This document shows, in pieces, positions 1-61,613 of a stretch of DNA of 64,000 nucleotides. Origin of the DNA: Chiloscyllium plagiosum (taxonomy: Eukaryota). The stretch spans positions 103,548,631 to 103,612,630 of the forward strand of contig NC_057717.1 in assembly GCF_004010195.1 (NCBI RefSeq). Direction: 5' to 3'. The first letter of the stretch is position 1; each line of letters starts with the position of its first letter. Both the position numbers and the translations under genes were made by a program. The notes under the pieces are model-generated. The model was given only the letters and a program-made list of their open reading frames with translations, did no database searches and was not told the DNA's origin.

Positions 1-170
1 GGGCGGGGCATTGCGGACAATGGGCCCGAGGGGCGGGGCGATGCGGACAGAGAGCGCGGGGGCGGGGCGATGCGGACAATGGGCGCGGGACGATGCGGAC
101 AATGGACGCGGGGGGGCGGGGCATTGCGGACAATGTGCCCGAGGGGCGGGGCGATGCGATGCGGACAGGA
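1..170. repeat. GC-rich degenerate tandem repeat (GGGCGGGGCGATGCGGACAATGG-like) in PIN1 intron 1
   Basis: About six recurrences of TGCGGACA(A) with GGGCGGGGC runs; truncated by the window start. Confidence 0.85.
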
Positions 171-2950: not shown

Positions 2951-3109
2951 TTCTATAAACTAGTGAGGATGCTGCCTGACCTGCTGCGCTTTTCCAGCAA
3001 CACATTTTCAGTTCTATAAACTAGTGTTGTGTGATTTTAAACTTTGACACAAGAAAAAATTGACATTAACTTTCTCTGTTCCACCGATTTGCCACCTTCC
3101 CAAACCACA

Positions 3110-3285
3110 CCAGTTGAAAAAGCACAGCAGGTCAGGCAGCATCTGAGGAGCAGGAAAACAGATGTTTCGGGCAAAAGTGAAAGGTCTTCAGGTCCTGATG
3201 GAGGCCTTTTGCCCGAAACGTCGATTTTCCTGCTCCTCAAATGCTACCTGACCTGCTGTGCTTTTCCAGCACCACTCTAATCTTG
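3110..3285. mobile_element. Short palindromic Penelope-derived insertion (family B)
   Basis: GAAAAAGCACAGCAGGTCAGGCAGCAT mirrored by ATGCTACCTGACCTGCTGTGCTTTTCC; degenerate CTGATGG...GCCCGAAACGTCG core. Confidence 0.75.
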
Positions 3286-10744: not shown

Positions 10745-11547
10745 GTTTGTTTTCTCATGTGACTGTGAAATACTGATTTCTTGAATTGCATGGCATTTGC
10801 AATACGTGAACATAGATCTATTCTCTGGATTAGCCTCCTCTCATTGCTTCAATTAACCATATTAACATTATTCTGTTGGATGTGCATGTTGATGGTATTT
10901 GTTGCCCATCTGTTTGCTTCTGCCAATTCTGAGGACATCTTGAGTTGACCATATTTCTGCGGGTCTGGAGTCCCATGTAGGACAGACTAGACAAGGACAA
11001 GATGTCCTTCCCTATAGGCCATTGATGAGCGAGATAAATCTTCACGACATTTGGCAGTGGCTTGATTTTCTTTTTAATTCTAGTTTTTTATTGAATTCAG
11101 ATTTTACCCTCCATCGCCTCCCCAGAACATTAGCATGTCCAGTGATGTTAGAATAATACAAATGCCTCCTCATATCCTCCCATTCCTTGCTAGAATGGGA
11201 GCTTTTCTAGAATGCTAACTTTTTTTGAGTCAGTGTTTTTATTAAATGAGGCAAAAGTGAGGACTGCAGATTCTGGAAACCAGTGTTTAGATCAGAGTGG
11301 TGCTGGAAAAGTACAGCAGGTCAGGCAGCATCCGAGGAGCAGGAAAATCGACATTTCGGGCAAAAGCCCTTCATCAGGAATATTTTTATTAAATGTGTCT
11401 TGCTAGAAAAAGCTCGTGCACTGATTTGGAACCATTTGCAGCATTTTATCCCTTGTGTTGAAATTCAGATCGTTGTCTTGTTATGGTCCAAAGAGGCTTC
11501 ATTTCAGTTGTTGCTTCTAATTTTAACTTTTTATTTTTCCATTCCAG

Positions 11548-18815: not shown

Positions 18816-20297
18816 CTAAGGTATGTCTTGATCCTCAGATTCTGATATTCCTGTCTTGCATTGTTGTTCCAGACCAGTATTGCTGACTCCTGCATTCTCC
18901 CTGGGGCTTCTCGATGGTGATTCCGTGGCTTGGCTGGCCTTGATCAAATTGCCTGGATGGGGCACATGTTCTTCCACCTTTTCCACTATTTCAGTTGCCT
19001 GAGAGCGTGCAGAGGTGTTTGAGATTGCTTGTTCTTCTTCAGCATCTTCTGCCATTTTTCCAGATAATTTATCTGCTGTGCTGACTGGAATTTCACCTGT
19101 CCCTTCTGCTAATGGATCTAAGTGTGTGCCCTGATTCTCAGCTGAGTTTTCGAGACATTCTGGAAGATTTCTCAAGCACGTTGGAGCGTGCGCTTGGCAA
19201 GTATCTCGACTTTCTTCCGAACCCATGGCAGAAGTTTGTCGCCCTTTTCCGACACCTTTATTTTGGGTTTCTAAATCTGCGTCGATGTTTTCCAATATTT
19301 TCAAGTCAATCTCTGCTGGGGCTTTCAGTCCAGTTTTGATTTCTGTTGGCAGCTCTTCATCATAACACACACATGTATCAGCAGCTCCTCCTTGTGTTTC
19401 CTTAACCAATATGTCACCTTCGCTTGACTTACCATCATCTTGGCTAGCTACCATTGAGCCATTATCCGTATCTGAGTAGACTGGCAACTCTGTCTGCCCT
19501 GCAATATGTTTGGCATCTTTGCAACATTCTTCTTGCATGTCACTATTGTTCACACCTGTAGGAGTCTCATTTGTACTATCCGATACTTCTTGACAATCAG
19601 GCTCAACTCCTGCTTTAACCAGAATATCCGTTGCACCCCCTGAACCAGTTGGAATGGCTTCTGCTTTTCCAGTGGTCTTGGATCTTCCTACCTCAGCTAT
19701 ACATTGTACCTGGGAGTCTTCACATCCTTGAATGTTTTCTCTCATTGAACCATCCACAGAAGTGGAGAGTCCAATGTTCTCCATTGCCGTTAATGCTTCA
19801 ATCTCCTCTCTGTACCCCTGGCTTTCTGATTCTTGGAGATTAATTTGACCATCTTGTATAGATCGACCATCAATAGACAGTTCTTCTCTACAAGGGTCTT
19901 GGTCTGATTGTTCTGTCTTAAGTTCAACATCAGCCTGTAAGGAGGTTTCTTCAGGTTCCATTGCAGTCTGCACTGAGATATTCTCTTCAGATTCATTGTT
20001 TTCATTTCTTGCCTTGAGACCTGGATCTCCTTTACCTCCAAGAACTTCATTTCTTTCAGTCACTTGTTCTTCTTCAACAGTAATCTCTGCACCAGTTGCT
20101 TTTGCCAGTTGCACCTCCATAGCCATTGTTTCTTCAATTGCTTTGCTAATCTCAAATGGTTCTTCATTTATTGTGAGATCTCCAGATTCCTCTTTATTTG
20201 GCACGTCTTGATTTTCACACACACTAGGGGATATCATGACTGGATGTTCTTCTAGTCCCTGTTTGGTAATTTCCTGGGCACCTTCTACCTCTGCCAT
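18816..20297 (-). CDS. Uncharacterised 493-aa Glu/Asp/Gln/Ser/Thr-rich, probably intrinsically disordered protein encoded in one exon
   Basis: 1482-nt repeat-free ORF; AACATGG Kozak with an in-frame upstream TGA; acceptor (T)n-gcatttaagcag| at 20561; no domain recognised. Confidence 0.8.
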   Translation of the reverse strand: MAEVEGAQEITKQGLEEHPVMISPSVCENQDVPNKEESGDLTINEEPFEISKAIEETMAMEVQLAKATGAEITVEEEQVTERNEVLGGKGDPGLKARNENNESEENISVQTAMEPEETSLQADVELKTEQSDQDPCREELSIDGRSIQDGQINLQESESQGYREEIEALTAMENIGLSTSVDGSMRENIQGCEDSQVQCIAEVGRSKTTGKAEAIPTGSGGATDILVKAGVEPDCQEVSDSTNETPTGVNNSDMQEECCKDAKHIAGQTELPVYSDTDNGSMVASQDDGKSSEGDILVKETQGGAADTCVCYDEELPTEIKTGLKAPAEIDLKILENIDADLETQNKGVGKGRQTSAMGSEESRDTCQAHAPTCLRNLPECLENSAENQGTHLDPLAEGTGEIPVSTADKLSGKMAEDAEEEQAISNTSARSQATEIVEKVEEHVPHPGNLIKASQATESPSRSPRENAGVSNTGLEQQCKTGISESEDQDIP

Positions 20298-21375
20298 GTT
20301 TCTCTTGGATCCCAACAAGCCAAGATTTCAATTGTCGACGCACTGTTGCGGTCAGTTTAATAAATCTTCACAAATTTAATCTTCACTCTTTCCCAAACTT
20401 CTCAACCTGTCGTCCCTTTGTTCTTTTTCGGAGCAGAAAGTGGTTGTGTTAAAGCTGCTGCCTGGTGACAAATTTTGTTGACAGCACACCTGTGAAGAGC
20501 TTTGGAAGGTTTTGGTGCTATGGAAATGTAAATCGTTGCTGGGTTCTTTTGGAGAACTTCCTGCTTAAATGCAAAAAAAAGATTAATATGATTATGTTTA
20601 AAGACCAAATAAAGTTACTTGTTCAGGAATGCAAATACAACGTGGAATCCAGATGGCCCAAGTACACAGAATTTCTGTTTAACAAAGCACACCTTTTTGA
20701 ATATATGATTTTTCAATCTTCTCCTCTGTCTTTCCTGTTAGAATTTGCACAGCATGCACTTGGCAGGGGCCAATCAATTCTGCATGACCTTTTCTGAATC
20801 TCAAGGAGCTAATATCCGGATGTGTCTCGCCCTGATACGATGCATTAGTTTTGGATTCAGACTACATTTACATCACTGGCGTAGTATCTCAACAGCTTCA
20901 ATGTAAGTGTAATTGCAACACAAAGCTTTTCATTTCAGAATGGGCTGCTAACTTGCAAAGCATTGAGTTTTTGTGAGAGGATGTCAGAGATGGACACCGT
21001 TTAATAAAATGCTGGAAAATCCAGCGAAAGGAATTTGACAAAACCCACATTGATTCATGAGTTCTGTTCAACTGCACTTAGATTCTGAAATATCCCTGCG
21101 ACTGAACTCTGCTTACATTTCCATTTCTATATTAATGTAAGGTGTTCAATCTACAAAAAGTGTTAACAGAAATTTTTTTTTCTTCATTCAGGTATTAGTA
21201 GTTTATAACCTGGACTGAAATCGACCCCTAATGAAAACTGAATCTTCCATTTTCGTGCATGTACGGACACATCACTGCAGTTATTCTGAGGCTAGCATTT
21301 GCAATGTTGTGATTATTAACAGCTTGGCCACCATGGGGAGGAAGCATTTTGTTGCACAGTGTTTTTTCAAAGGTT

Positions 21376-21570
21376 AAAAATCACACAACACCAGGTTGTC
21401 CAACAGGTTTAATTGGAAACACATTAGCTTTCGGAGCGACGACAACCACCTGATGAAGGAGCAGCGCTCCGAAAGCTAGTGCTTCCAATTAAACCTGTTG
21501 GACTATAACCTGGTGTTGTGTGATTTTTACCTTTTATACACCCCAGTCCAACACTGACATCTCCAAATCG
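21376..21570. mobile_element. Short palindromic Penelope-derived element (family A)
   Basis: AAAAATCACACAACACCAGGTT... at 21376 mirrors ...AACCTGGTGTTGTGTGATTTTT ending 21528. Confidence 0.8.
21450..21480 (+). ncRNA. Minimal hammerhead-ribozyme-like core (family A)
   Basis: CTGATGA-A-GGAGC-AGC-GCTCC-GAAA-GCTA: both catalytic boxes flank a perfect 5-bp stem II. Confidence 0.6.
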
Positions 21571-28860: not shown

Positions 28861-29090
28861 GGGAGAAAGTGAGGGCTGCAGATACTGGAAAGTCAGGGTC
28901 AAAAAGTGTGACACTGGAAAAGCACAGCAGGTCAGGCAGCATTCGAGGAGCAGGAGGAGCGACGTTTCGGGCATAAGCCCTTTATCAGGAACACCTGATG
29001 AGGGGCTTATACTCGAAATGTTGACTCTTCTGCTCCTCGGATGCTGCCTGACCTGCTGTGCTTTTCCAGTGCCACACTATTCGACTCTGC
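28861..29090. mobile_element. Palindromic family-B Penelope-derived insertion with two opposed hammerhead-like cores
   Basis: Inverted arms CACTGGAAAAGCACAGCAGGTCAGGCAGCAT / ATGCTGCCTGACCTGCTGTGCTTTTCCAGTG; cores near 28960-28988 (-) and 28995-29020 (+). Confidence 0.75.
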
Positions 29091-30700: not shown

Positions 30701-32784
30701 TATGCTGGAATCTGTTCTGAAAACAACAAATGCTGGAGATCACAATGGGTCAGACAGCATCCATGGAAAGAGAGCAAGCTAATGTTTCGATGACTCTTCA
30801 TCAGCGCTGCCCTCCCTTTGATGAAGCCATTGCTGATTCAGCCCTATTTTACCATGTACCTCCGAGTATTCTTTAATAATACACTCTAAAGTCTTACCAA
30901 TGGCCAAGGTCAGGCTAACTGGCCTATAGATTCCTGTCTTCTGCCTCCCACTCAATTTAAACAGGGGTGGTTGCGCTAACACTTGGTCCCTGATCGCCCA
31001 CTGCCTGCCTCTGTCCTGCAGTTATGCTCAGTATTGGGTGCCCTTGAATAGGAATGGAACCATATGCTGTGTTAATAGTGTGCATAGTCACGGAGCTCAG
31101 CAATTACCTTGCCAATGGCTTGATGGGGTTCTTCAAGCCCAGTTTTAAGTTCAGTCAGTGGACGCTCCTTGACTCTGTCAATGTTTGGGCTGCGTCATTG
31201 GGTGGTTTTGGCAACCCCGTTGGCATTAGGTGTCTGCACTGTGTCCAGAATCATTGGAAAGAGGTTACCGTCAAGATGGCAGACCAAACCCAGATGGACG
31301 TGTTGTAGAGTCCACGGTAGAGAGAGTGTTTCCAGGCGATGGTTTCTCCTGCCAGTCTATAGGTCCTCAGCTGTTCCCCCTCAGAGCGGTGGGTTTAACC
31401 ACTCGGAGGAAGGATGTGAAGGAAGGTGTATGACGAGTGTGTTGAGGACGCCATTCAATAAAGGTAGGCTTGGGTTGGAGTAGACTTTCTCCAGTCCCTT
31501 GCCCATTATAATTACCCAGCATCAAAGGAGCAGGAGAATCGACTTTTCGGGCATAAGCTCTTCTTCAGGAATGAGGAGGGTGTGCCAAGCAGGCTAAGAT
31601 AAAAGGTAGGGAGGAGAGACTTGGGAGAGGGGCGTTGGGAATACGATAGGTTATAGGGAATACGGGGAGGTGAGTTGATCAAAGAGAACCTGTCCTAATG
31701 GGTATTATTGATTTGCATTGCCCTTTGACAGGCTAGGGGTGGGTGGATTGGAAACCCATTGTAGCCCATCTGTCACATAATACAAAGCAATATAGCAGTC
31801 AAGGGATATAATGTCACATAAGATGTCAATCCACAGGCTATAATCCATGTCTTTCTTAGTTCACCCCAACAGGCATGGCTAATGAACATCTCAACTGGGT
31901 CTGTGAATTGCTGCTCTTTTGAATATTTCATAAACAATAGAAACTGACAGGGAGGGGAAAGATGGAAACACTACAGCCACACCCTTAGTCCTTCAAGCAA
32001 TACCCACCCTCACAACTGTGTAATCTCTCAGGAAAGGGAAAATTAAACCAGGCCAATCCAGGTATCCATCCCCTGGACAATTGCTGAAAGCCAATGGAAA
32101 CCAGACCAGGGAATCTCACTGAATGCTGTCCACCGGGAAAACACAGCCTTGGTTTGAACCTCATGAATTGTTTTAATCACCGAATTGAAAAAGCAGTAGA
32201 CTAATTTGGAAGAGTGAGATGGATTTCACTGTGTTTACTCAGTTTGTGGTACACCCCAGTAAATACATTGGAGACTATAACTCATCAGTGATCCTTGCTT
32301 TGAGCTAACTCTTGTTGGGATTAGCTGCAATAATAAAATTGTACAAACAACAAAGGTTTATTTTTTGCAAGGAGCTTGCAAACATCGGTGGTCATATGGT
32401 TTGCAGTTCATATGATCCGACCGGCAAGATGTTTATTGTAAAGTACAAAGGGCCAACTGACTTTTGTCTGGTCAGCTACTGAAATACTTTCCCAATGAAG
32501 CAATTGTTGCTGTTATCACAGGATCCTCTTGCAATATTTGTCCACACAGCGATGACTTGCTACAACTTTCTACATACACAAAACTCACGTGAAATTTCCA
32601 ACTCCCTGGGCTCTAACCCAACCAAGATTCAACATTGCTCCATCCCTCACATTCTGTCCTGTCAGAATGTCAACATGGTGCAAATCATTGTGACTGTACA
32701 GGCACAGCTTTGGCTGGGATGGGGATTCCATTAAAAATATACTTCAATCGGCTTGAGGTGGTTTTGGAGACGGTGTTCAAGAAT

Positions 32785-33412: not shown

Positions 33413-35159
33413 CGAGCTGCTACAGGATCCTCCACATCCGACCTCTTGAGCAGATGGGGCTTTGGGTTGAACATTTCAGCCAAAAGGCCATCATTTGGGG
33501 TTAAAGGGAATGACAGATAAGTGGGAACAGGACATTGGGGTTGGATGCTGAGAATGGCTGAGCAGTCTTGAATGTTCTTCTGCACCGTTTGTCCACGTTT
33601 CTGTGCTGGCATTTCTGACAGTGCTGCACTCCCTCAATACTGCTCAGCAGTCTAAGCCAAGTAGTGTGCATGCGATAAGAAGCTTCTTACACAACCTCCC
33701 TCTGCACTAGGAGAAAGTGAGGACTGCAGATGCTGGAGATCAGAGCTGAAAAATGTGTTGCTGGTAAAGCGCAGCCGGTCAGGCAGCATCCAAGGAGCAG
33801 GAGAATCGACGTTTCAGGCATGAGCCCTTCTTCAGGAATCAGGAGGGTGTGCCAAGCAGGCTAAGATAAAAGGTAGAGAGGAGGACTTGGGGGAGGGGCA
33901 TTGGGAATGCGCTAAGTGGAAGGAGAGGGTGATAGGGTGAGGGTGATAGGTCGGAGAGTGGGTGGGGCCGGAGAGGTCGGGAAGAAGATTACAGATCAAT
34001 AAGGCAGTGTTGAGTCCGAGGGTTGGGTCTGAGAAAAGGTGGGGGTAGGGGAAATGAGGAAGGTGGAGAAATCTGCATTTATCCCCTTGTGGCTGGAGGG
34101 TTGATACTTGTGCTGGAGAACAATTCGTACCCTGAGGTACTGTCCTCAAAGCTGGACCAGGCACCTTCAGCAAGCGGAACAGAGGGAGGGAAACTGTTCT
34201 TTTGATAATGATTCTGTGCTTTCAGCTCAATGTTTGGCTTTCTCCAGTTCAGAAGAACATTCTGACCTGATACATCACAATGATTTATGGGACCTTCCAA
34301 CAGGGAGTCATCGAGTGGACGCTACGAGAGATTTAAACCGTATGGCTTTGTCCGAATGCATCCACTGCTCGACGACATGGCCAGCTGCCACTCTGGAATG
34401 AGTTTTGACCCTGCACACCTCAACAGAGTCCTGCAGACCGCCCCACCCACAGTCAGGGAGGCCCCTCTACCATGTCCTCCCACTCTGAGAGCTACCAAGT
34501 GGAAGGGGCTCACAACTTGCCACTCATTGCTCCATGGTAATGTATTGCGAGGTAACAACCAATCCATACAGAGCAAGATCCCACTAATCACACTGATGAC
34601 AGCATCAGACAGTTTGTGATCATGCCTGGGGAAGCAGGCCATTGGACCCATTTAGTCCACACTGACCATCCAAAGGGCATCCCAGACCCCCTGCCCTACC
34701 CTCTCCCTGTAACCATGCATTTCCCATGGCTTACCCACCTCGTCTGCACATCCCTGGACACTGTCAGGCAATTTTGCTCGGCCAATCCACCAAACCGATT
34801 TGGTTTGGTTTATTGTTGTCATTTGTACCTAAGTACAGTGCAAAGTTCTGTTTTGCAAACAGGACATCCAGATGATAGAGTGGACCTGGAGGGTACCCTT
34901 TGTTAGACATTCAATGCAAGTTAGTCCTTTGAACTATGTAAATAAAAGGCTCAGTAGCCAACTTGAAGTACAGCTTCACATATGCTGCATCTGCGACAGA
35001 ACCATCACTCAAACATTTATTTTTATGTGTGTGTGTGTGTGTACATCACATGAGGCAGTGTCAACATGCTGTTCCACAAAGCAGGGCGTCACAGTTGAGC
35101 TTAACATCATCTGCACCCAAAGTCCACACATAATAGAGCACACATAATGAAGGTGTGAG

Positions 35160-35855: not shown

Positions 35856-36122
35856 CAAAGTACAGTGAAATGTGTACAATGTCACCACATATAGTGCCAC
35901 CTTCATAGATGTTCATAAAACCCCTACAGTATGGGGAGGCCATTCGACCCATCTAGACCACAACAACCCCCTGGGGTGGCTTCGTGGGTCACTCGCTGTT
36001 TTCAGTGACCCCACCTAGTGGCACCCCAATGGGAACGCTCTCATCCCTCCAACTGAGAGCCGGGAATGTGTCACCCTCTCCAGAATCAAAGGCAGTGCAC
36101 ACCTTGGCTCCCACTCCCTGGA

Positions 36123-36298
36123 GGAGAAAGTGAGGACTGCAGATGCTGGAGATCAGAGCTGGAAATGTGTTGCTGGAAAAGCGCAGCAGGTCAGGCAGCA
36201 TCCAGGATTCCTGAAGAAGGGCTTATGCCCGAAACGTCGATTCTCCTGTTCCCTGGATGCTGCCTGACCTGCTGCGCTTTTCCAGCAACACATTTCCA
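36123..36298. mobile_element. Palindromic family-B insertion with a 16-bp target-site duplication
   Basis: GCTCCCACTCCCTGGA at 36107-36122 and 36299-36314; near-perfect inverted arms. Confidence 0.85.
36211..36238 (+). ncRNA. Minimal hammerhead-ribozyme-like core (family B)
   Basis: CTGAAGA-A-GGGC-TTAT-GCCC-GAAA-CGTC: catalytic boxes, stem II, palindromic ACGT in place of stem III, GUC triplet. Confidence 0.65.
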
Positions 36299-37199
36299 GC
36301 TCCCACTCCCTGGATAGACTGTGGAGCTGCGGCACTGCTGCCTATACCTTGGTTTGAGCCAGACGCATAACTGAGGCTCCTTTCTGTTCTCTCCTGGTGA
36401 GTGTAAATGATTGTATTGATATCACAGTGTCAGAGGAGAGCAGCAGAGTTGTAGTGCCTGGGGCCCTAGCCAATATTTATCCTTAAGGAGAAAGTGAGGG
36501 CTGCAGATGCTGGAGAAGGGCTTATGCCTGAAACGTCGATTCTCCTGTTTCTTGGATGCTGCCCGACCTGCTGCGCTTTTCCAGCAACACATTTTCAGCA
36601 ATAATTATCCTTAAATCAACATCACGAGAACAAGTGATGTGGTCTGTAGCACATTGCCGTTCATGGGAGCTTGCTGTGCTAGGTTTCGCATATTCATTAC
36701 ACTAATTAGTGTTGGCCAATAAATGATATCTTAGTCAGCCACGCCCATGTCCCAGGACCAATTATTAAAACAACCTACAACTGTGATCACAGTTCAAAAA
36801 TGCCTCATTGGCTGAAAAGTGCTTTGGGCCATCCTGAAGTCATGAGCGGCGCTACATAAATACAACTCTCTCTCTCTTTCTTCTCAATATGGAATGTGTT
36901 CAACTCTTCAACTAATCCAGTTTGCAAAGAAAGGCAGAGACAAAAAGTGTTCTTGAGAATATTTTTAAACTGTATTAATAAATACAGACAAATCAATTCT
37001 TGATTATATTGGAAAGAATCTTGTTTATATAAAAGAATACAATGTTGCCAGAGTTGAACTCAGAAAGTTAATACTTTGAGATTATTAGGGCACCCCTCCA
37101 GTGAGGTTCTGGACGCAGAAAGCCACAGAGAAGTGACCTTTATCTTGAGAGAGAGTCTCCTTTGTATCATCGGTGGAGTACCCACAGAAGGCTGAAGCT

Positions 37200-37256: not shown

Positions 37257-38752
37257 CTGGAAACAGAGAACGGGCAACGTTACACACCGGTCAAATACAA
37301 CTGTTTGTACAAGCGTAGATCTTCAGAGTTAGGGCAGGGCCCCTCCAGTCTGCTCCACCTTTCAGTAAGACTGGGGTTGATCTGCCTGATCTCCACTTCC
37401 CAATTTCTCCTGTATCACAAATGTCTGTGCGACACAGCTTTGAATTAACTCAAAGGCACAGCCTCCACTACTATCTGCTTTTGTGATAGCAGTAGGGACA
37501 GCAGAGGGTCAAATAGACATCCTGCCTTGTATAGGCTATTAACTGGGTCATTCACAAAATGCTGCAGATCTGAAACATGAGCTGGAAAAACTCAGCAGAT
37601 GAGGATGCATCTGTGAAGAGGAACAGAGTTAACTTGAGATCAGATGAAAGGTTATCAACAGGAAACGTTCGCTCTGTTTCTCGCTACAGTCCTGTGTGGA
37701 CAGCAGAGATTTCCAACATTTTTTGATCATTTTTTAAAATCTCATTCTTGGTGAGAGATTACTGCACAGATGTTTTTCACATCACAACAGTGACTACATT
37801 ACAAAACAGCGATGTGGCTCTCTGGAACAAACTGTGAATGCTGCTTTGCAAGTCCAACTCCCCTCCCCTGGGAGGCTAGCAACCAGAGAGCAGTAGTGGT
37901 ACTGTGGTAACGTCAGAAGGCTTGTAATCTGAAGTCAAGATTAATTTTCTGGGGATGTGGGTTCAAATCCCACCACAACCAACAGCAAGTAAGGTGGAAG
38001 TATGAAAAACAACCTCTCTTCTTGATTAAATGAGAGCTTAGGGTGTAGAAAGTACTGCCTGGAAATGTGGTGGAGGCAGGTTCAATTGAGGCATTCAAGA
38101 GTGGGTACTTGGCTAGAAATCCTTCCTGAAGAAGGGCTTATGCCCGAAACGTCGATTCTCCTGCTCCTTGGATGCTGCCTGACCTGCTGCGCTTTTCCAG
38201 CAACACATTTTCAGCTCTGATCTCCAGCATCTGCAGTCCTCACTTTCTCCTGGAAAGAGTGTGCAGGGATTTGGGGAAGAGGCAGGGGATTAGCATTGGG
38301 TCACGTCGTTCGTTTGAAGAGCTGATGCAGACACCTCGGTGCTGTCAGTTAAACATCACACAACATCAGGTTATCACCCAACAGGTTTAATTGGAGCTTT
38401 CAGAGCGCTGCTCCTTCATCAGGTGCTGTAACATATTTGTGCTTCTATGATATTTAAATCCCGGTACATAAACTATAAAGCTTGCCTAATGTCGATCACC
38501 CCATCTGGTTCACTGAAGGAAACTGCCATCCTTACCTGGTCTGGCCTACAGGTGACTCCAGACCCACAGCAACGTGGGTGACTCTTAACCACCATTGGGA
38601 ATGGGGAACAAATAATTACTGGATTAGTCTCAACTGGGTTCTAAAGGAAAGGGCTGTTTTAAGCTGTATGTACACATTTGCCAGTGAGACGCAGAGTGAC
38701 AAGTGGAAACTGGGTTGGGAACAAAGATTGGAAACACGAGATTACCACACAC

Positions 38753-38904: not shown

Positions 38905-41900
38905 CTGCAAGGCATCAAAATCAGAGGAGATCCTCAACGCCAGTATAGTAAATTCCCGATTAAAGTTGGAATTAGATTAATAGTCACATCATTTAAAAGG
39001 GACTAAAGGGCAACTTTTTCACACAGAGGGTGGTGCGTGTATGGTACAAGCTGCCAGAGGAAGTGGTGGAGGCTGGTACAATTACAATGTTTAAAAGGCT
39101 TCTGGATTGGTATATGAATAGGAAGGGTTTAGAGGGACATGGGCCAAGTGCTGGCAGGTGGGACTCAATTAACTTAGGATATCAGGTCAGCATGAGAGTC
39201 TGTTTCAGTGCTGTACATCTCTATGACACAAAGTACAGTGAAATGTGTACAATGTCACCGCATAAAATATAGTGCCACTTTCATAGATGCTCATAAAATC
39301 CCTACAGTATGGAGAGGCCATTTGACCCATCTAGACCATACCAACCCCCTGAAGGGCATCCCACTCAGTCACTGTAACCCTGCATCTCTCACAGCTGATC
39401 CATATAACCTACATCCCTGTAGTCAATGGGCAATTTAGCATGGACAATCCACCAAACCTGCATATCTTGGACAGTGGGAGGAAACCCACGCAGACACAGG
39501 GAGAATGTGCAAAACTCCTCACAGACAGTGACCCCAGGGTGGAATTGAACCCACATCTCTTGCGCTGAGAGGTAGTAGTGCTAACCACTGAGGCTCCGTA
39601 CCACCTCTTATGTACTATTGGTACAAAAATAGTGAAATAAAGAGAAAAGCTAAAAGTTCTACATTACAGTTCTTCACATTATAAATTAGGATGACAAAGA
39701 CATAAAGTTAACTGATAACTCCTTTGAAGATGGTTTGGAGATGCCAGTGTTGGACTGGGGTGTACAAAGTTAAAAATCATACACCAGGTTATAGTCCAAC
39801 AGGTTTAATTGGAAGCACTAGCTTTCAGAGCGCTGCTCCTTCATCAGGTGATCATTAGATTAGATTACTTACAGTGTGGAAACAGGCCCTTCGGCCCAAC
39901 AAGACCACACCAACCCTCCGAAGAGCAACCCATCCAAACTCATTCCCCTACATTTACCCCTTCACCTGACACAACAGGCAATTTAGCATGGCCAATTCAC
40001 GTATAAAGGAGCGGCACTCCGAAAGCTAGTGTGCTTCCTTTGAACATGGTTTTGTATTAAGAGAATAGTTACATTAATTTGTTTTAACATTGTGAGTGTT
40101 AATTTTTCCTCATGCTTCCTCTCCTATATGCCAACCTCCTTCCAGCTCCTATCCCTATCCTCAGACAATCTTCCTCCCATCTCCAAATCCCTATCCCACT
40201 CCTCTCTGTTTGTCCCGGTCTCCTCTCCTGGCTCCTGTTCTGAACTTGCATTGCTGCCTTGGGCAGTTTCCTGATGAAGGGCTTTTGCCCGAAATGCTCT
40301 CCTGCTCCTGCTCCTCGGATGCTGCCTGACCTGCTGTGCCTTTCCAGCACCACTCTGATCTTGACTCTAATCTCCAGCAACTGCAGTACCCACTTTTGCC
40401 ACGTTTGCCTTGGGCACTACCTAGAGCCAGATATTGGTTAGTGCAACCAACTACTGCCACCAGATGGAGCCTTGTTAATTAAAACTGCAGGGAATTGGTA
40501 TTTATTTAATCTTTCTTGTCAACTTTTAATTTTTATGATATTGTAAAGGTTTTATAACATGGAATGTACACCATTTCAACTCAGTAATATTTTAAAGTAT
40601 TGGGAAAGGTCCTGAGTATTCTAATAGTTGCTGAATGATGTATTTATACTATTTAAGATGGATTACACAGTACTACAGATATGCTCCTGTATTCGAACCA
40701 GCACATTGTGTACCCAGAGCAAAAAAAATAACTGAAGGAACCTAACTCCAGTCCTACCATTGACTTCTAGGGGAAGCTGTGATTCACTTAATTTTTCCAT
40801 TTAAAGTCATGGTTTTCAGGAATATAATCACTGGGATCGGGCCTATGTGATTCACCTCTCTCTCTGCAAGAACCTGCAGCTACAACTTGAGGGGTGGCAT
40901 GGTGGCTCAGTGGTTAGCATCACTGCCTCACAGCACCAGGGATCTGGGTTCAAGTCCAGCCTCAGGTGACTGTCTGTGTAGCATTTGCACATTGCCCCCA
41001 TTGTCTGCGTGGGTTTCCTCCCACAGACCAAAGATGCGCAGGTTAGGGTGGATTGGCCAGGCTGAGTTGCCCACCGTGTGCAGGTTCGGTGAATTAGCCA
41101 TGGGAAATGCAGGGATGTGAGTGGGTATGGGCTGAATGGCCTGTTTCAATACCGTAGAGACTCTATATGAATTGAAAACTTTTGCTAACTTCTCACTGCA
41201 TTTGGCAACCCCTGCTTGATTAATGACACCACACTCCCAGTATTGGACACTCGATGCCCTCGCCACAGCCAATCAGAACGTAGATCAACACTTCATTAGA
41301 TGATTCTGATCAATCAACTCCCCTACAATTTGGCTGACAAAGTGACAAATTTAAGATAAAATGACAAGTTTAAGGCAAATCTTTCAACACTGCACTTTCT
41401 TTTGATGTCCCAATGATATTTCTCCAAAGCTTGCTTGTGTCAATATTCTAGAGATAAAAATGTGAAAACTAGGAACAACAATAGGTCATTCAGTCCCGAA
41501 AGACTGCTCTGCCGTTCGATATGATCGGAGCTGATTTTATTATTCCACGTCCTTGCCTGCCTGCTCCATCTAACCCTTACTTGTTGAGAATCTCTCTACC
41601 TCTGACCTAAGAACGTTCAGGACTCTGCATTCACCACCTTTTCAGGAAGACAGTTCCCAAAGACGTACCTCCTTCTGAGAGAGAAGATTTCTCATCTCTG
41701 CCGTAAATGATGTCTGTTTTTGAACCCCCCTCTGAGAAGAGGAAACGTCCTCAGGGACAACTTGCAAACTCCACACAGACAGTCGCCCGAGACTGGAATC
41801 GAACCCGGGTCCCTGGCGCCGTGAGGCTAACCACCGAGCCACCATGACTTTACTGCGGTCGGACTACCCACTAACAATCTCTCAGAAGAGAGATGATCTG

Positions 41901-42668: not shown

Positions 42669-42859
42669 TCCATGAAAGTGACTCATAAACAGAACATAAT
42701 CAGAGAAGGATAAATGCAGAAAGTGCTGGAGAAATGTGGACTGCAGTCACACTGGACTCTAAATTTTAACTCTCTCTCTCTCTTTCTCCACAGATGCTGC
42801 CTGACCTGCTGAGTTTCTCCAGCACTTTTTGCTTCAGATCTCCAGCATCCACGGTACCT

Positions 42860-43365
42860 TTAAAGTACCGCCACAAACTCACCTGCACCTCCACACACAT
42901 CATTTACTGCATCCGCTGCACCCGATGTTGCCTCCCCTATATTGGGGAGACAGGCCGCCTACTTGCGGAACGTTTCAGAGAACACCTCTGGGACACCCGG
43001 ACCAACCAACCCAACCACCCTGTAGCTCAACATTTCAATTCCCCCTCCCACTCCACCAAGGACATGCAGGTCCTTGGACTCCTCCATCGCCAGACCATAG
43101 CAACACGACGGCTGGAGGAAGAGCGCCTCATCTTCCGCCTAGGAACCCTCCAACCACAAGGGATGAACACTATCGCATTTCCAACACCCCTCCTCCCTAC
43201 CTTTTATCTTAGCCTGCTGGACACACTCTCCTCATTCCTGAAGAAGGGCTCATGCCCGAAACGTCGATTCTCCTGCTCCTTGGATGCTGCCTGACCTGCT
43301 GCGCTTTTCCAGCAACACATTTTCAGCTCTGATTTCCAGCATCTGCAGTCCTCACTTTCTCCTAC
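42860..43365 (+). mobile_element. Penelope-like element 3' end: GIY-YIG endonuclease fragment plus terminal repeat with hammerhead-like core
   Basis: LTCTSTHIIYCIRCTRCCLPYIGETGRLLAERFREHL..VAQHFN..RRLEEERLIFRLGTLQPQGMN; core CTGAAGA..GAAACGTC at 43238-43265. Confidence 0.9.
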
Positions 43366-43670
43366 CTTTAAAGTCTGAATGGAACTGGGTGCGCTGAAGT
43401 AGTAGGAGGCCAGTCTGCCCATCATAACTTTGCAATCCCTTTGAAAGAGCTCTCCAAGTATAAAAACTAGGAACAGGAGTAGGAAACTCAGCCAGTCGAG
43501 CCTGCTCCACCATTTAATACGATCATGGCTGACTCCTCTTGGCCTGAACTCCACTTGCCTGTCCACCCCTTGTAGGCCATGGCTAATTGATTATCTGCCT
43601 GTCTCCCCCTTGTGTTTATTCAGTGCCCTGGCATCCATCAAACTCTGGGGTCATGAATTCTATAGATAGT

Positions 43671-44227: not shown

Positions 44228-45455
44228 ATATATCAGATTTTTTTTAAAAAATTGGTTCAAATGTCACCATTTGCCATCGCAGGATTTGAACTCAGAAAAC
44301 TGGCCTGCCATTTTGTATAACTAGAGTGAAGAGAGTGGTGCTGGAAAAGCACAGCAGGTCAGGCAGCATCCAAGGAGTAGGAGAATCAATGTTTCGAGCA
44401 AAAGCCCTTCATCAAGCCCTTTCCTGTAGTATTCACTTTCACCTGTTCGTATAACGAGCCCAGTGACATTATCATGACGCCATCACTTTCCACACGGAAA
44501 GTGAATTCAAATTTCTCCATCTGCCATGGCAGGATTTGAACCCAGGGCCTCGGGACCTGTAGATAAATAGCCTCCCAGGAACGTCGCTGGGCCACTGCTC
44601 CTTCCAATTAGTTAAATCTTCCCTGAACACTTTTTCCCCACATTATGCTCCTTTTTCCAGGTCTTTTCCAATCACCGAACAATAGTTTTTTTGTTGCCTT
44701 TGGATTATAAACAAGAAACCTCTTCATTTCATCCCCAGTCAATTCTTTTGCCAGTCACCTCCCGTCCTGGCAGTGAAAACAGCTTCTCTCTGCCTACTTT
44801 TTCAATTCTGCTGAAAGTGTGTGTCTGTTTTGCAATCTTCTCTGTCCTACGGAGAACCAGCTTTTTAAGTACCACAGCAACAACAGAAGTTCTGTGCCCC
44901 CAGGTGATATTCGCCTTCTGTGCCCCATTCAAAGACCTGACACCCTCCTGCAAGTCTTTTTTCCTGAAGTTGGTAGCTGCCAGAGCACATCAGGTAAGAA
45001 ACCATTACACACAGAATGTTGCGAAACTCAGAAACCTTGTCATACATGTTGATCAGAATCACAGAATCCCTGCAGCATGAAAACAGGCCATTTGGCCCAT
45101 TGAGTCTACACCTAGACCCAATGTATCCCTGCATTTCCCATGGCTAATCCAGCTAACCTACACATCCCTCGACACTATGGGCAATTTCCCATGGCTAATC
45201 CACCCTAACCTGGACATCTTTGGACTGTGGGAGGAAACCCACGCAGACACGGAGGGGATGTGCAAATTCCACGCAGACAGTCATCCTGAGGCTGGAATCA
45301 AACCCGGGTCCAAGGCACTGTGGAGTAGCAGTGCTAACCACTGAGACACCGTGCTGTATCCCTTGACAGGATATTTATCAACAGGGAGACCTCTCTGGCC
45401 TGGGTTGAAGTGTATGCGTTTGTTGTACCACAGTTTAAATTCGGTTCATACATAC

Positions 45456-46892: not shown

Positions 46893-48169
46893 ATTAAATC
46901 ATTTTATTTAGCTTCCGGGTTAATTCATTACTGTTTGATAATATTTGTTCATATTACTCCCTGTTAATCCCTTAAACCGATTGTACAAAAGCAAAATACT
47001 GCGGGTGCTGAAATTCCGAGGAAAACTCAGGAATATCAAAGAAAAATTCATCCCAGACTCAAAATGTTAACTCTGTTTCTCTCAGCATGAATGCTGCCAG
47101 ACCTGTTGTGTTTCTCCAGCATTTTGTGTTCGCTCCAAACCAGCTATCAAATTGAAATTGAGACATTTGGATCTTTTCCCTTGTGGAGTGGGTTTATTGA
47201 CTTCCTCAGTCTTATAACTCCTGACCCACACCCAGTGTCCTAGGTGCAGCCTTTATATTTTCTTATTTATTTCCTAATCAACCTATTTAGAGATGTTACT
47301 ACACACCTTTCAAGCAGGTGGGACTTGAACCTGAGCCAGAGGTACACACACTACCACAAGGACCCTTTAAATAGGTTTGCATGCCATGATGAACAGCCAT
47401 CTTTCTTACAGTGTGGAAACAGGCCCTTCGGCCCAACAAGTCCACACTGACCCTCCAAAGAGTAACCCCCTTCCCTCTGACTAATGCACCTGACGTTATG
47501 GGCAATGTAGGATGGCCAATCCACCTGGCCTGCTGGACTTTAATTGGGAAAAATCTGGTCTGTGGAAGGAAACCGGAGCACCCTGAGGAAACCCACGCAG
47601 ACACGGGGAGAATGTGCAAACTCCACACAGACAGTCACCCGAGGCTGGAATCGAACCCAGATCCCTGGTGCCTTTACTTTATGATTATGTATGACTTCTG
47701 TCACTGACGCAGGCTCTGTGGTTAGGCAATTTATGTGACTTTTCACTGTATTTTTCATGTGAAAGTACAGGGGAACCTGTACTTAAATTGACAATAAATT
47801 TCTCTTCAATTTTGTTGTAATGTAATGAAAATGATGACCACTAGATAGCACCAAAGAGCAGAATCCCAGTGCAACAGGCAAAGATCTTCATAAAATCAAT
47901 ACTGGATGTTTATGAGCAATCTGAAATGCATTAATTTTCTATGTTAAACCCAGATTTCCCAAAGGTGTATTGCGTTGTATTTAGTCATGGAGGGTGTTTG
48001 CATTTAGTGCTTGCTCAGATATTCCCCAGGGATGTAATCATTTGGTGATCCTTTACCTTCACCTCTGATCATTGGCAGCATTGATTATGCTGAGTACTCA
48101 TTTCTCATCACTTTAACTAAAAGCTACATTTGAGTTGGATAGAGGTGGTTAGTCACAGTCATACTGCAT

Positions 48170-49265
48170 GAGAGAATTCTAGAACACTGGTGTTTAACTG
48201 GGAGAATTCTGGCCTTTAAGTAGAGAAAATACTGGTCTTTCACTGGGAGAAATCTGGTCTTTAACTGGGAGAAATACTGATCTTTAATTGGGAGAACTCT
48301 GGTGTTTAATGGGAGAACTGTGTATGTTTAATTGGGAGAAATCTGGTCTTTAACTGGGAAATTTTGTCTTAAACTGGCAACAAATCTGGTCATTCACTGG
48401 GACGTATCTGGTATTTAACTGGGATAACTGGTCTTTAAGTGGTAGACCTCTGGTCATTAACTGGGAGAATACTGGTCTTTAATGGGAGAACACTGGTCTT
48501 TAACTGGGAGAAATCTGGCCTTTGGGTGAAATCTGGTCTTTAACTGGGAGAAATCTGGTATAAAACTGGGGAAAATCTGGTATTTAACTGGGAGAATGCT
48601 GGACTTTAATTGGGAAAAATCTGGTCTTTAACTGGGTGAAATCTGATCTTTAACAGATAGAAATCTGGTCTTTAACTGGGAGAACTCTTTTTTTTCTGGG
48701 AGAATACAGGTCTTTAACAGGGAAAATACTGGTCTTTAATGGGAGATCTCTGGTCTTTAACTGGGAGAAATCTGTTCTTTAATTGAGAGAAATCTGGTCT
48801 TTAACTGGGAGTACTCTCATCTTTAATTGGGAAACTCTGTCTCTAACTGGGAGAAATCTGGGTTTTAAACTGGGAGAAATCTGGGTTTTAAACTGGGAGA
48901 AATCTGGGCCTTTAACTGGGAGAACTCTGGTCATTCATTGGGAGGTATCTGGTCTTTAACTGGGAGATATACAGATCTTGAACTGGGAGAAATCTGGTCA
49001 TTCACTGAGAGAACTCTGACCTTTAAATGATAGAAATCTGATCTTTAACTGGAGGAACTCTGGTCTTTAATTGGGAGAAGTCTGAATATTTAACTGGGAG
49101 AACTCTGTCTTTAACTGCAAGAAATCTGTTTTTTTAACAGGGAGAACATTGGTCTTTAACTAGGAGAAATCTGGTCTTTAACAGGGTGAAGTCTGGGTCT
49201 TTAACTGGGACAACTCAGGGTATTTAACTGGGAGACATCTGGTCTTTAACTGGGAGAACTCTTTC
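48170..49265. repeat. ~22-bp tandem satellite (CTGGTCTTTAACTGGGAGAAAT), roughly 50 degenerate copies, in a VAV1 intron
   Basis: Contiguous head-to-tail units over 1.1 kb. Confidence 0.95.
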
Positions 49266-50074: not shown

Positions 50075-50500
50075 AAGAAATGTCTTCTTGTTGTGGTTCT
50101 GTTCGCCGAGCTGGGAATTTGTGTTGCAGACGTTTCATCCCCTGTCTCGGTGACATCCTTAGTGCTTGGGAGTCTCCTGTTAAGCGCTTCTGTGGTGTTT
50201 CTTCCAGCATTTATAGTGGTTTGAATCTGCCGCCTCCGGTTGTCAGTTCCAGCTGTCCGCTGCAGTGGCCGGTATATTTGCAGTCCTCACTTTCTCCCCG
50301 AAGATTTTTGTCCTATAATGGTAATGTTGTCCCAGTCGAACTCATGTTGCTTGTCATCTGCGTGTGTGGCTACTAAGGATAGCTGGTTGTGTCGTTTCGT
50401 GGCTAGTTGGTGTTCATGGATACGGATCGTTAGCTGTCTTCCTGTTTGTCCTATATAGTGTTTTGTGCAGTCCTTGCATAGGATTTTGTCTTCTTTTTCA
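50075..50500 (-). mobile_element. Second Penelope-like family: GIY-YIG fragment plus terminal repeat
   Basis: KILCKDCTKHYIGQTGRQLTIRIHEHQLATKRHNQLSLVATH; degenerate hammerhead-like core at 50129-50162. Confidence 0.85.
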
Positions 50501-51139
50501 GCAATCTCAACTTCTGAACTCCTTACTATTAACGCTGGCTTGTGCCCTGATTTAACACTGCTGTGGTTATCATTCATCTGGCTTTCTTGCCTGTTCTTTG
50601 CAAAGTGCAAGGTTCCCATCTTCCACTCAGCTGGAGTCCTAGAGGTACAGAGATCAAGGTTCATTGTTCCATTTCCTATTTTATTTATTCCTTTACAATA
50701 TCTCTAAGGAGGTTGGCACATCTGAGAGAATAGGGCTTCTCTGGAGCACATCAGATAGCCCAGAGTGAGCAAGGCTGCCTTCTCTCAGGAACATACGTAC
50801 ACTTTGCTAGAACGTTGATCGCAATGATGGGAGATTATAACCACTCTGGATCTCACTCTGTGATGTAACTTACTGCCCCCCCCATCCCCCAGGAAGCTTG
50901 ACAGTTACTGAGTATTCCATCTCGGCAACAAGAACTTCATTCAAACTCCAATTTGCTTCCCCCAACAAAGAATAACCAGATATGTTTGCACAGAAAACCC
51001 CAGTCATAGCTAACTTAGACAAACAGAAATCCAAGCTGCTTCAAGACGTGGGCTGATAAATACCAAGTAACATACACACCAGCTAATAACCATCTCCAAT
51101 ACAAGAGAATCTAACCATCAACCCTTGACATTCAATGGT

Positions 51140-54562: not shown

Positions 54563-55565
54563 CTGTAAATAAAACAACATGAGTAAGATTTAAAACCAGA
54601 AGGAAAAAGCAGTATGTTTCTGACCAGTGACTATCTCACTAACTAGACAGTCTTTGTTACTATGATCACTAGAACTCTATAGATGTGCACTTGCAATGCC
54701 AAGACATACAAGGCTATGGGCCAAGTGCAGGAAAATGGGTTTAGAATAGTTAGGTGGGTAGTTTTGACCAGGTTAGACACATTGGGTCTTCCCCCTGCTC
54801 TAAGATTCTATCTAAAATTCGCCAGAGCACCAGGAAGATCTCCCCTTTCATTTTACCTGTTCCAACCACAGGGTCTAAGTGCCATGCCCCATCCAAACTC
54901 CTGCACCTCAGACAATGCAGCACTCCTTGGGTACTGCACTGGAGTATCTGCACTACAGAAGTTGTGTTCAAATCTCTGGAGGAGGACTTGAATCCACGAC
55001 AAATGATGCCGGGGGCAAGAGTGTTATTCACGGAATCAAACTAAATGAAGGTTTTAAACGTCCAGCCAATATGCAAATCTGACAATATCAGGACACTGAA
55101 AAGAACAAATGTTGGAGATCTCAGCAGGTCAGGCACTATCCATGGAGAGAGAGCAAGGTCAAGTTTCCCGTCTGGATTGATTCTTCATCAGTAAGGTTAG
55201 CTTGCTCTCTCTCCATGAATGCTGCATGACCCATTGTGATCTCCAGCATTTGTTGTTTTCAGTACAGATTCCAGCATCTGCAGTAATTCGCCCCTATAAT
55301 ATCAGGAGGCTGCTTGTTACTGCAACATCCCATTATCACAAGCCTCCTGACCAGGTTAAGGTGGTTAGATTGGCTCGACCTTCAGGCTCACTGGGCGACT
55401 GAGTTGGTGTAAGAGGACAATGCCAGCAAAGCAAAGAGCTGTGGATGCTGGAGATCTGAAACCAAAAGAGACATTGCTGGCGAGACTCATCACAAAGGGT
55501 CACTGGACTCGAAGCGTTAACTCTGTTTTCTCCCCACAGATGCTGCCAGACCAACTGAGTCTCAC

Positions 55566-55657
55566 CTTGCCTTCCACACGGAGCGACCCTCCCTAAACAT
55601 TCCTTGTGAGCTGCGGACTTGCACTTGCTGCAGCGATAACCCTGGAAGAAGGTGCCC
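55566..55657 (-). CDS. VAV1: VAV1 C1 zinc-finger exon 2
   Basis: [30 protein letters not shown]; 92 nt. Confidence 0.95.
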
Positions 55658-56989
55658 CTGTTGGGTGACAGAACAGCGAGAGGGCATTGATTTCAGACCA
55701 ATGTCACTGTTAAACTTGCAGAGAGAAGTTTTAGACCACAAAGGCTCCATATGACAAAAAAGATATACAGGCAAGTGTAGGAAAGGATTAACTGAGAGGT
55801 TATACTCACCAGGAAAGTTTGGAGCTCCCTTCTCAAGGAGGGAGGCCTGGTTGAGGTCTTTAGAAAGACTGTTTTACAATAGAAATATGGTAGAAATTCA
55901 CTTGCAGGTGAGATTGGGACTATAAATACCAGACAGCCACTAATAAATCCAATTAGGAATTCAGGAGAGGTATCTTTACCTGTTCTACGGTCTACTGTAA
56001 AGATGTGTTTCAGGTCAGGTAAAGTCTCCATAGTTTCATTATAGAGAGACAACTGAGGCTTAACCTGAGGGTCACCATGCCTCAGGTGAGGGGAGAGGTT
56101 GAGAGGGAGCGTCCTCCATGGTAACCTCAGCTGGTGCAGGAATTGAAACTGCTCTGTTGGAGTCACTGTACAGCCAACCAGGTAAAAACAATGACTGCAG
56201 ATGCTGGAAACCAGATTCTGGATTCGTGGTGCTGGAAGAGCACAGCAGTTCAGGCAGCATCCGAGGAGCTGCGAAATCGACGTTTCGGGCAAAAGCCCTT
56301 CATCAGGAATAAAGGCAGTGAGCCTGAAGCGTGGAGAGAACCAGCCAACTGAGCTAACTGACTCCTACACTTAGGGCGCTTCATAAACAGATGATGAGAG
56401 GAAAGGAATTAGATGGCTATGTTGGTAGAGTGAGATGCAGAGGGTTCAGGAGGGGAAATTAAACACCAGCACAGACCAAACAGCTAAGTAAGAATTGTAC
56501 TGGTCATGCCAACATGGCCACCTGCCCATCCCGTTAGAGCAGAGGTCAGTCTTGCCATTACATTGCCATGGGAGTTACCACCTCTCTGGCCTCGTCCCAT
56601 TGTCTACTGTCCCCTCCCCCTGCAGCCCCAACCCCCCACTTCCCACATGACTCGCTGCACCCTTTCACCAGCAGCAAGTCAGCCATAACATGCTGCCCAG
56701 TGGATTTCGCCATCCCCTGACATTTTCAGTGAGGCTGGTACTTGATGGGAAAGCTGTGTATCGGGGCAGGCGCGGTCGCTAGGCTATCCTGGCCGAGCCT
56801 TGGGGACGAACATAGATAAGTCATACACAACTTTGTAATGTTCAGAGTTACTGCAGGTGGCGATAGTGAGCAGTACAGCTCACCATTCTCCTGTTGCGTC
56901 ACCTGCAGAAATCAGGCTCATTGACAACCTCAGTAATTGCCAATCTCCAATTTTCTCCATTACATTTACATTCTATTGAGACTGTAACA

Positions 56990-60376: not shown

Positions 60377-61613
60377 CTAAGAAACAATTCACAGTTAGAA
60401 ACATAGGAACCAGGAGGAGGTCTTTCTTCCCTTAGAACCTGCTCTGACGTTCAACATGATCATGTCTAATCCTCTATCTGAGCTCTCTATTTCCGCTTCT
60501 GCCTGACTATCCCTAATGTCTGCACTATCTAAAAGAACACTCTCTTTCCTGAGTACATTGAGTGGTTGGCCTCCATAGCTTTCTGTGGTAGGGAACTCCC
60601 ACAGGCTCATTACCCTCTGAGTGAAGAAATCTTCAATGGTCCACCCCATGTCCCACCACATGACAGGCAAAAATGAGGACTGCAGATGCTGGAAATCAGA
60701 GTCTAGATCAGAGTGGTGCTGGAAAAGCACAGCAGGTCAGGCACCATTTTCCTGCTCCTCGGATGCTGCCCCACCACATGATATCTTCATCTTGCTCACC
60801 ATGCTTATACTCCACATCCTACAACATCCATCTCCGAAAATCAATCACATTGTTCTCCAACAACTACATTCCTGACAGAGGCCTTATGTCGACTCTCCTG
60901 CTCCCCGGATGATGCCTGGCTCGCTGTGCTTTTCCAGCACCGCACTTTTTGTCTCCAGCAACCACAGTCTACTGTGGCAGACTTCCAAATTTCTACCACT
61001 CCTTTGTGTAAAGTTTAAACAGTGATCTGTAATCCTTTCATTTTGTTCCCTTGATTCCTCTGGAGAGAAAATAGCTTTAAGTATCGACCTGGTCGGATCC
61101 TGTTGTTAAGTGCAACCTGCAACCCTTTACATCTTCGCGTAAGTCACACAATGTATGATAACGGAAGTGGAACTCCAGGTCAAAGCTAATTGCTTTTGGC
61201 ATCCTTTTCTGGTTTTGGCCCCATTATGTTACATGGCTGTCAGCAATCACCCCACTGTACAACATACCAAGGCATTAGGGCGGCATGGTGGCTCAGTGGT
61301 TAGCACTGCTGCCTCACAGCACCAGGGTCGCAGGTTTGATTCCAGCCTCGGGCGACTGGAATTTGCACATCCTCCCTGTGTCTGCGTGAGTGTCCTCTGG
61401 GTGCTCTGGTTTCCTCCCACAGTCCAAAGATGTGCAGGTTAGGGTGAATTAGTGTTAGGTGCATTAGTCAGAGGGTAAATGGGTCTAGGTAGGTCACTCT
61501 TTGGAGGGTAGGTGTAGACTGGTTGGGCCGAAGGGCCTGTTTCCACACTGTAGGGGAATCTAACCTAATAATTACAGCCCCAAGCTAATCAATCTTCCCA
61601 ATGGTGCACTTAC

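Follow-up and report, generated by a model that had tools for sequence, protein, structure and literature searches.

Short hammerhead-bearing hairpin insertions of Chiloscyllium plagiosum are very probably pseudo-LTR copies of an abundant endonuclease-bearing Penelope-like element

Several described systems come close to the short repeat considered herein, termed family B. Four of the sources cited below (PMC3846280, PMC8557442, PMC4209133 and bioRxiv 10.64898/2026.07.22.740005) were available in part, and statements attributed to them pertain to those parts. Endonuclease-bearing (EN+) Penelope-like elements (PLEs), including Pen2a of Adineta vaga, encode a reverse transcriptase (RT) with a C-terminal GIY-YIG domain in an open reading frame (ORF) flanked by pseudo-LTRs (pLTRs), and share with family B head-to-head inverted copies, an optional tail of 30–40 bp and heavy 5' truncation; their duplications of about 10 nt are akin to those reported here (PMC3846280; PMC8557442). 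The hammerheads of Cervera and de la Pena (2014; PMC4209133) likewise resemble family B in their core boxes, extra base, G-C start of helix II, palindromic 15.2/16.2 pair, lack of helix III and mostly single, scattered occurrence. In the green anole, Poseidon_Ac (PAc) carries a hammerhead at the pLTR/ORF junction, and two internal sites of RT initiation mark the borders of its tail, as in family B; both target strands are cut and extended, and a dimer has been predicted (PMC11167929). Non-LTR retrozymes are also pLTR-related, non-coding and equipped with a type I hammerhead (bioRxiv 10.64898/2026.07.22.740005). Inverted pLTRs, a one-sided tail and target-site duplications (TSDs) have been described for PLEs (PMC3846280; PMC8557442), and together with the minimal hammerhead all of these features are already in print for this class.

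Family B nevertheless departs from each of these systems. Unlike the EN+ PLEs described in the available parts of PMC3846280 and PMC8557442, most of its insertions consist of a 90–230 nt pLTR alone, present in several hundred thousand copies. Unlike the hammerheads of PMC4209133, most of its subfamilies carry a U-U mismatch in helix I. PAc, of the Penelope/Poseidon clade, has an ORF that begins within the ribozyme (PMC11167929), whereas the family B PLE has an extra CX4CxxC linker, and two short upstream frames precede its long frame, which begins at about +162. Retrozymes form head-to-tail arrays with one ribozyme per unit, whereas family B occurs solo or head-to-head. The literature outside most subscription titles yielded neither an account of family B in a cartilaginous fish nor figures for tail asymmetry or a 5' boundary; no such counts occur in the available parts of PMC3846280 and PMC8557442, and no cartilaginous fish is named in those of PMC4209133.

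The window, i.e. the whole 64,000-nt stretch of C. plagiosum DNA that was analysed and to which all bare coordinates refer, was searched with the core pattern CTGAWGANGGGCNNNNGCCCGAAAC at up to 3 mismatches. This yielded 13 matches, as against 0 in 100 shuffles, and four of them were perfect (36211, 38126, 43238 and 56282). All ten core positions listed in the initial annotation were recovered within a few bases, and three further cores were found at 3195, 28995 and 36510. In the 3.56-Gb genome, the exact 28-nt core pattern matched 86,254 times, evenly split between the strands (43,103 vs 43,151), and the reversed control gave 0 matches; the very high abundance proposed from the window was thus borne out. 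For comparison, about 4,000 motifs in coelacanth and about 9,000 in Xenopus have been reported, although with different descriptors (PMC4209133). A 39-mer located 3' of the core occurs 58,732 times genome-wide. A random sample made up of 120 10-kb stretches at even spacing, amounting to 1.167 Mb once N was excluded, contained 124 cores with at most 5 mismatches, while a Markov control contained 0. The resulting density of about 106 per Mb, roughly half that of the window, extrapolates to about 3.7 x 10^5 recognisable cores in the genome. No family B array was present among 16 tandem rows in the window, and true same-strand neighbours within 1 kb were seen in about 6 of the 120 random stretches, forming no arrays. 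A host-gene check of the window showed a C1-domain frame at 55336-55692 (-), which presumably fits a VAV-type gene. The window also holds an acidic low-complexity open frame of 503 residues at 18816-20327 (-), possibly one large exon, a 22-nt minisatellite of about 49 copies at 48187-49262, and a near-perfect palindrome of about 77 nt at 13583-13660 that is unrelated to family B.

The insert at 36107..36314 and the other copies in the window are listed in Table 1, in which pLTR positions are numbered from the first C of CTGA (position 0). The stretch 36120-36302 is a head-to-head pair that folds as one long hairpin, with the hammerhead motif in its loop and helix I unformed. Since 3–4 nt of the 16-nt repeat also match the ends of the element, the true duplication is 12–16 nt. 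The arms are identical to the 3' end of an endonuclease-linked copy at 92/96 and 80/82 nt, and to the 5' end of an ORF-linked copy at 94/95 and 82/84 nt; by sequence comparison, they are the element's own pLTR, 96–99% identical to both of its ends. Four flanking repeats noted earlier proved exact (16 nt at 36107/36299, 15 nt at 2951/3012, 10 nt at 36477/36605 and 12 nt at 60652/60770). The description of these short copies as ribozyme-bearing held only in part, as the core is absent from the stumps at 2967 and 60666 and is cut by the junction at 36510. The stump at 2951-3026 lies within the decayed RT-thumb/linker/endonuclease region of an older related PLE (2185-2950, +).

Table 1. Positions of the insert at 36107..36314, its parts and other family B copies in the window.
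Feature	Position	Strand	Remarks
Left TSD copy of the insert, 16 nt	36107..36122	.	last 3 nt also match element end
Inverted pLTR arm, +41 to +127	36120..36206	-	bears 36-nt tail, without ribozyme
Direct pLTR arm, -4 to +91	36207..36302	+	tailless; begins at common 5' boundary
Minimal type I hammerhead motif	36207..36242	+	assigned from sequence, folding and the definition in the available part of PMC4209133
Hammerhead helix I strands	36207-36210 and 36239-36242	+	
Hammerhead core box	36211-36217	+	
Hammerhead helix II	36219-36230	+	
Hammerhead GAAA box	36231-36234	+	
Predicted cleavage site	between 36238 and 36239	+	
Right TSD copy of the insert	36299..36314	.	first 4 nt also match element end
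Second insertion	36477..36614	.	10-nt duplication, 23-nt inverted tail stub, tailless direct arm, junction-broken core
5'-truncated PLE copy	42855..43374	+	GIY-YIG fragment 42860-43171, then 3' UTR
Ribozyme motif of that copy	43234-43269	+	tail reaches 43363
12-nt direct repeat of that copy	42855-42866 and 43363-43374		read from sequence
49-nt stump (+44 to +92)	2951..3026	+	no ribozyme; 15-nt duplication
Decayed head-to-head pair	3115..3282	.	core at 3195
Solo pLTR copy, older subfamily	11262..11382	-	starts at -5
Head-to-head pair, tail on one arm	28862..29089	.	cores 28964-28988 (-) and 28995-29019 (+); no flanking duplication found
pLTR fragment with upstream 3' UTR	31517..31616	-	3' side cut short
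Longer 5'-truncated copy	33708..34090	-	3' UTR, core, tail; reaches at least 34090
Solo pLTR copy	38120..38252	+	perfect core and tail
Solo pLTR copy, older subfamily	40268..40396	+	
Tailless pLTR copy	44332..44415	-	decayed core
pLTR copy (-33 to +125)	56171..56349	-	perfect core; 8-nt flanking repeat
Core-less pair	60652..60781	.	in 12-nt duplication; tailed arm 60666-60747 (-), 22-nt stub (+)

The link to a Penelope element, proposed from a GIY-YIG frame at 42860-43171 followed by the core motif, was confirmed as regards sequence order, with a Pfam match that is weak in this copy (E 0.002, below the curated cut-off). This fragment has 125,390 first-look candidates in the genome. Among 20 loci chosen by an RT fragment, the motif lay 3' of the RT match on the same strand in 18. 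Two loci (L033 and L034) contain RT, GIY-YIG and the motif in a single gap-free stretch, with the motif about 160 nt past the stop of the RT + GIY-YIG frame; their RT matches PF00078 above cut-off (E 1e-8) and retains the DKG motif and YIDD, and the GIY-YIG domain matches PF01541 at E 3e-4 to 2e-3 (18.8–21.5 bits, just under the cut-off of 22.6). On the other side of the ORF, 30 loci were selected by the N-terminal peptide, and in 11 of them the motif lies about 300 nt 5' of it; in such loci, the tail continues into the 5' region and the long frame starts at about +162. ORF-bearing copies begin at the same 5' place as short copies. Because the motif stands both behind the RT + GIY-YIG frames and ahead of the ORF N-terminus, the 130-nt family B unit is the pLTR of an autonomous EN+ PLE and not an independent mini-element. 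The pLTRs on the two sides of the ORF were seen on different copies; many long copies are interrupted by N, and no full-length intact PLE in one gap-free piece was seen. Long 'open frames' from the first protein search were rejected as intact ORFs, being runs of N. In five loci (L011, L013, L014, L017 and L019), PLE copies of kilobase scale stand head-to-head, separated by N, in the same layout as the mini hairpins.

The PLE protein carries a CX4CxxC linker between RT and EN (P0001) and reads IIY-CxxC-YIG, i.e. two cysteines lie between the GIY and YIG boxes. A CX2-5CxxC zinc-finger linker and two GIY/YIG cysteines characterize the Neptune and Nematis clades (PMC8557442, in its available part), and the predicted protein accordingly shows a linker of the Neptune-or-Nematis kind. 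No sequence match to the PLE ORF was obtained in the PDB. Ahead of the long ORF, two short upstream frames of 26 and 42 codons start at pLTR +14 and +46 (L175, L189 and L192), and the second overlaps the start of the long ORF; the peptides could appear as spurious gene models.

The 3' ends of the short copies are bimodal, at +87..93 and +123..129, i.e. about 36 nt apart. In the random sample, 22 of 25 head-to-head pairs with two canonical ends had the tail on exactly one arm (p 8e-5 vs 0.5; 15 of 40 pairs were left out for a non-canonical end). The asymmetry was replicated in 31 of 33 rows, corresponding to 30 of 32 inserts because one insert was counted twice; from this replicate set, one more pair had been dropped for N. 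The duplications proposed earlier are real: at least 8 nt were duplicated in 18 of the 25 pairs and in 27 of 33 replicate rows, with a length of mostly 12–16 nt in head-to-head pairs, whereas the rate among 600 mismatched flanks was 0.5%. Tight duplications were rarer in single copies (14/87); a wider search, which had no control of its own, raised this to 22/87. As for target preference, the duplications have a weak A+T lean (65% vs 59% in the background, 23 sites).

At the other end, starts of copies pile up at -5..-1, as found in 38 of 85 copies anchored by the 39-mer behind the ribozyme (6 of 91 were dropped for N; the 91-copy set was de-duplicated by genome position) and in 22 of 65 young copies from the random set. 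Only 1 of the 85 anchored copies began at the predicted cut (+28), and a small bump at this position among the young copies (3/65) was not repeated in the 85-copy set. Ribozyme-cut templates were accordingly rejected as the source of the short copies, since no excess was present (4/204 rows at +27..29, 3/65 and 1/85). The totals of 204 and 245 rows in the clustered set are slightly high, because about 7 long copies were counted twice in clustering; short-copy counts are unaffected. That so few 5' ends lie at the predicted cut is consistent with the in vitro finding that insertion does not require cleavage (PMC11167929). Among the 91 copies, junctions and arm lengths vary; some pairs (L233, L262) have 0–2 nt between perfectly inverted arms, and pairs exist in which both arms reach -2..-5 with 0–2 nt between them.

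The family B motif has the CUGANGA and GAAA boxes and a helix II of 4 bp preceded by one extra base, and a palindromic CG stands in place of helix III. The hammerhead-like core noticed at the outset fits the minimal type I hammerhead of PLE pLTRs, with G10.1-C11.1 in helix II, a palindromic 15.2-16.2 pair and a UH site (PMC4209133, in its available part). In Rfam, no hammerhead family was present among 8 hits at E<=1, and only miRNA-like hairpins scored, below gathering. A hammerhead descriptor gave 112 hits in the random sample, as against 4 in the Markov control. The expectation that the catalytic boxes would be better conserved than their flanks failed inside family B, where the block +45..+63 is equally invariant; differences among subfamilies fall on position 7, loop 2 and +30, a result biased because copies were selected by the pattern. 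In two other families of the sample, by comparison, the sequences of helices I and II differ but the hammerhead features persist, a pattern that speaks for genuine descent under constraint; support for such constraint comes from this between-family comparison rather than from within family B. In folding, helix II was stable and helix I unstable. The weak stem I suspected initially was verified, as most copies have 3 of 4 pairs with a U-U mismatch; in one subfamily, the U-U is repaired (4/4 pairs), with A at +30 in 11/116. Helix I pair probability was at most 0.04 in the main subfamilies and about 0.25 in one. The PLE-type motif has shown no cleavage as a monomer and low cleavage as a dimer (PMC4209133, in its available part), and the anole motif requires protein for cleavage and is dispensable for insertion in vitro (PMC11167929). 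In the short copies of family B, the hammerhead is a passenger; any cleavage would take place in the RNA of the source element and would need either a dimer or assistance from the protein.

Other minimal hammerheads accompany family B in the window. Family A, at 21450-21475 (+) and also at 1338, 2079, 3307, 38397 and 39822, has a 5-bp helix II, a palindromic GC and a 3-bp helix I, i.e. the architecture of family B in a different sequence. A third family at 50132-50703 (-), with a long helix II and 6 copies in the random sample, follows a further GIY-YIG-like frame, the two being separated by a family B tail stub (50276-50297); it probably represents a different PLE family. Repeats with a GATGCTGCC block and differing sequence on both sides (42779-42849, 37559-37619, 47056-47128 and 55104-55566) are likely further PLE pLTR families.

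Altogether, family B is explained with high confidence as the pLTR of an abundant endonuclease-bearing PLE, and the short copies, whether solo or head-to-head, probably arise as dead-end by-products at each insertion. The initial annotation had treated the mobile hairpin mini-elements as a family in their own right, with Penelope as a 'partner', a view that is not upheld, as the arms are PLE pLTR by identity and the junctions vary; hairpins whose junctions differ from insert to insert are unlike copies of one master hairpin. Short copies are likely built afresh at each landing, and for this reason family B is assigned to an already described kind of element rather than to a mobile family of its own. 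An independent non-autonomous family of SINE-, MITE- or retrozyme-like type, with transcription of the unit, self-cleavage and PLE protein supplied in trans, is very improbable, even though the extreme abundance of short copies, their sharp ends and their TSDs speak for it, as do the ability of pLTRs to act in cis on other sequence (PMC3846280) and the proposed origin of animal retrozymes from pLTRs (bioRxiv 10.64898/2026.07.22.740005), both in the parts available. Against it, the arms have no sequence of their own and are 96–99% identical to the ends of the autonomous element; moreover, a fixed unit with its own junction was not encountered, head-to-tail arrays are absent, 5' ends avoid the cut site and many stumps are without a ribozyme. 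Minor sub-lineages of re-mobilised stumps may exist within family B. For the formation of by-products at insertion, it is judged probable, with modest confidence, that the PLE protein would make a staggered cut in the target, that each nicked strand would prime reverse transcription at one of the two RNA sites, that each cDNA would extend over about 90 or 130 nt until it reaches the RNA's 5' end, or drop off earlier, and that the two cDNA ends would be joined, leaving head-to-head arms within a duplication. An alternative fold-back route, in which one strand is primed, the cDNA snaps back (or an antisense RNA self-primes) and is copied, and the endonuclease then trims one end and with it the tail, is considered unlikely. 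It stays close to published proposals, which in the available parts read the palindromes as self-priming on an antisense template (PMC3846280) and the tail as a product of endonuclease resolution (PMC8557442); it also predicts a single tailed arm, the 5' edge is an imperfect palindrome, and 2–4 nt are shared at many junctions. However, arms that reach -2..-5 with 0–2 nt between them leave no room for a loop, and the anole RT starts at both borders of the tail in vitro (PMC11167929). Priming of two cDNAs is favoured over snap-back because junctions of 0–2 nt separate perfect inverted arms.

The place at which the cDNAs would run off bears on transcription. Among 14 upstream clusters, 11 have the word TTATCT at -32..-36; a second word, TCATTC at -4, resembles an initiator. 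Together, the TATA-like and initiator-like words suggest a transcription start at -4. A pLTR with TATA plus Inr has been described (PMC3846280, in its available part). Judged from sequence, there is an even chance that the RNA 5' end reached by run-off would be the transcription start; a capped transcript 5' end was not observed. Helix I does not serve as a 3' splice site in the manner of D. virilis, a reading rejected because none of the 14 upstream clusters has an AG just upstream. A cap-derived G before the 5' edge is not supported, as it was seen in only 1 of 25 solo copies. The pile-up at -5..-1 could instead reflect an RT stop at the folded ribozyme, at the edge of helix I, in a longer read-through RNA. 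This reading is rather doubtful, although the 5' strand of helix I lies exactly at the boundary, further ends form a shoulder up to about +10 and no cap G signal is present; helix I is barely formed in folding (<=0.04; ~0.25 in one subfamily), the RT would have already unwound its 3' strand on arrival, ORF-bearing copies share the same start, and the promoter-like words stand at fitting distances. Of two raw-read RNA runs, one contained 2,193 family B reads on both strands and the other none. Since 94% of these reads run on into unrelated sequence, they are passengers in host RNA. They show loose ends at the same borders as the genomic copies; no pile of molecule ends appeared in the covered run, a poly(A) single-cell library that cannot show cut ends. 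In contigs of runs X1 and X3, joints lead from inside the 5' ORF region back to the -3 boundary (L191:1322-1737), hinting at further 3' end points or tandem junctions.

Family B adds scale and numbers to a known class of elements, with 86,254 perfect and about 3.7 x 10^5 recognisable cores. Head-to-head copies in host transcripts would, as judged from their sequence, form double-stranded RNA of about 85 bp, a possible editing substrate. Slightly more tentatively than an even judgement would allow, the stumps may be regarded as a fossil record of insertion, in which a dimer would prime both strands of a 12–16 nt stagger, always one per RNA site, and the cDNAs would run off a capped RNA that starts with helix I. 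If this reading is true, the dimer's geometry and the transcription start in vivo can be read from the tail asymmetry (about 90% of pairs) and the sharp 5' edge. Both of these counted features yield predictions that can be tested in the existing anole in vitro system.
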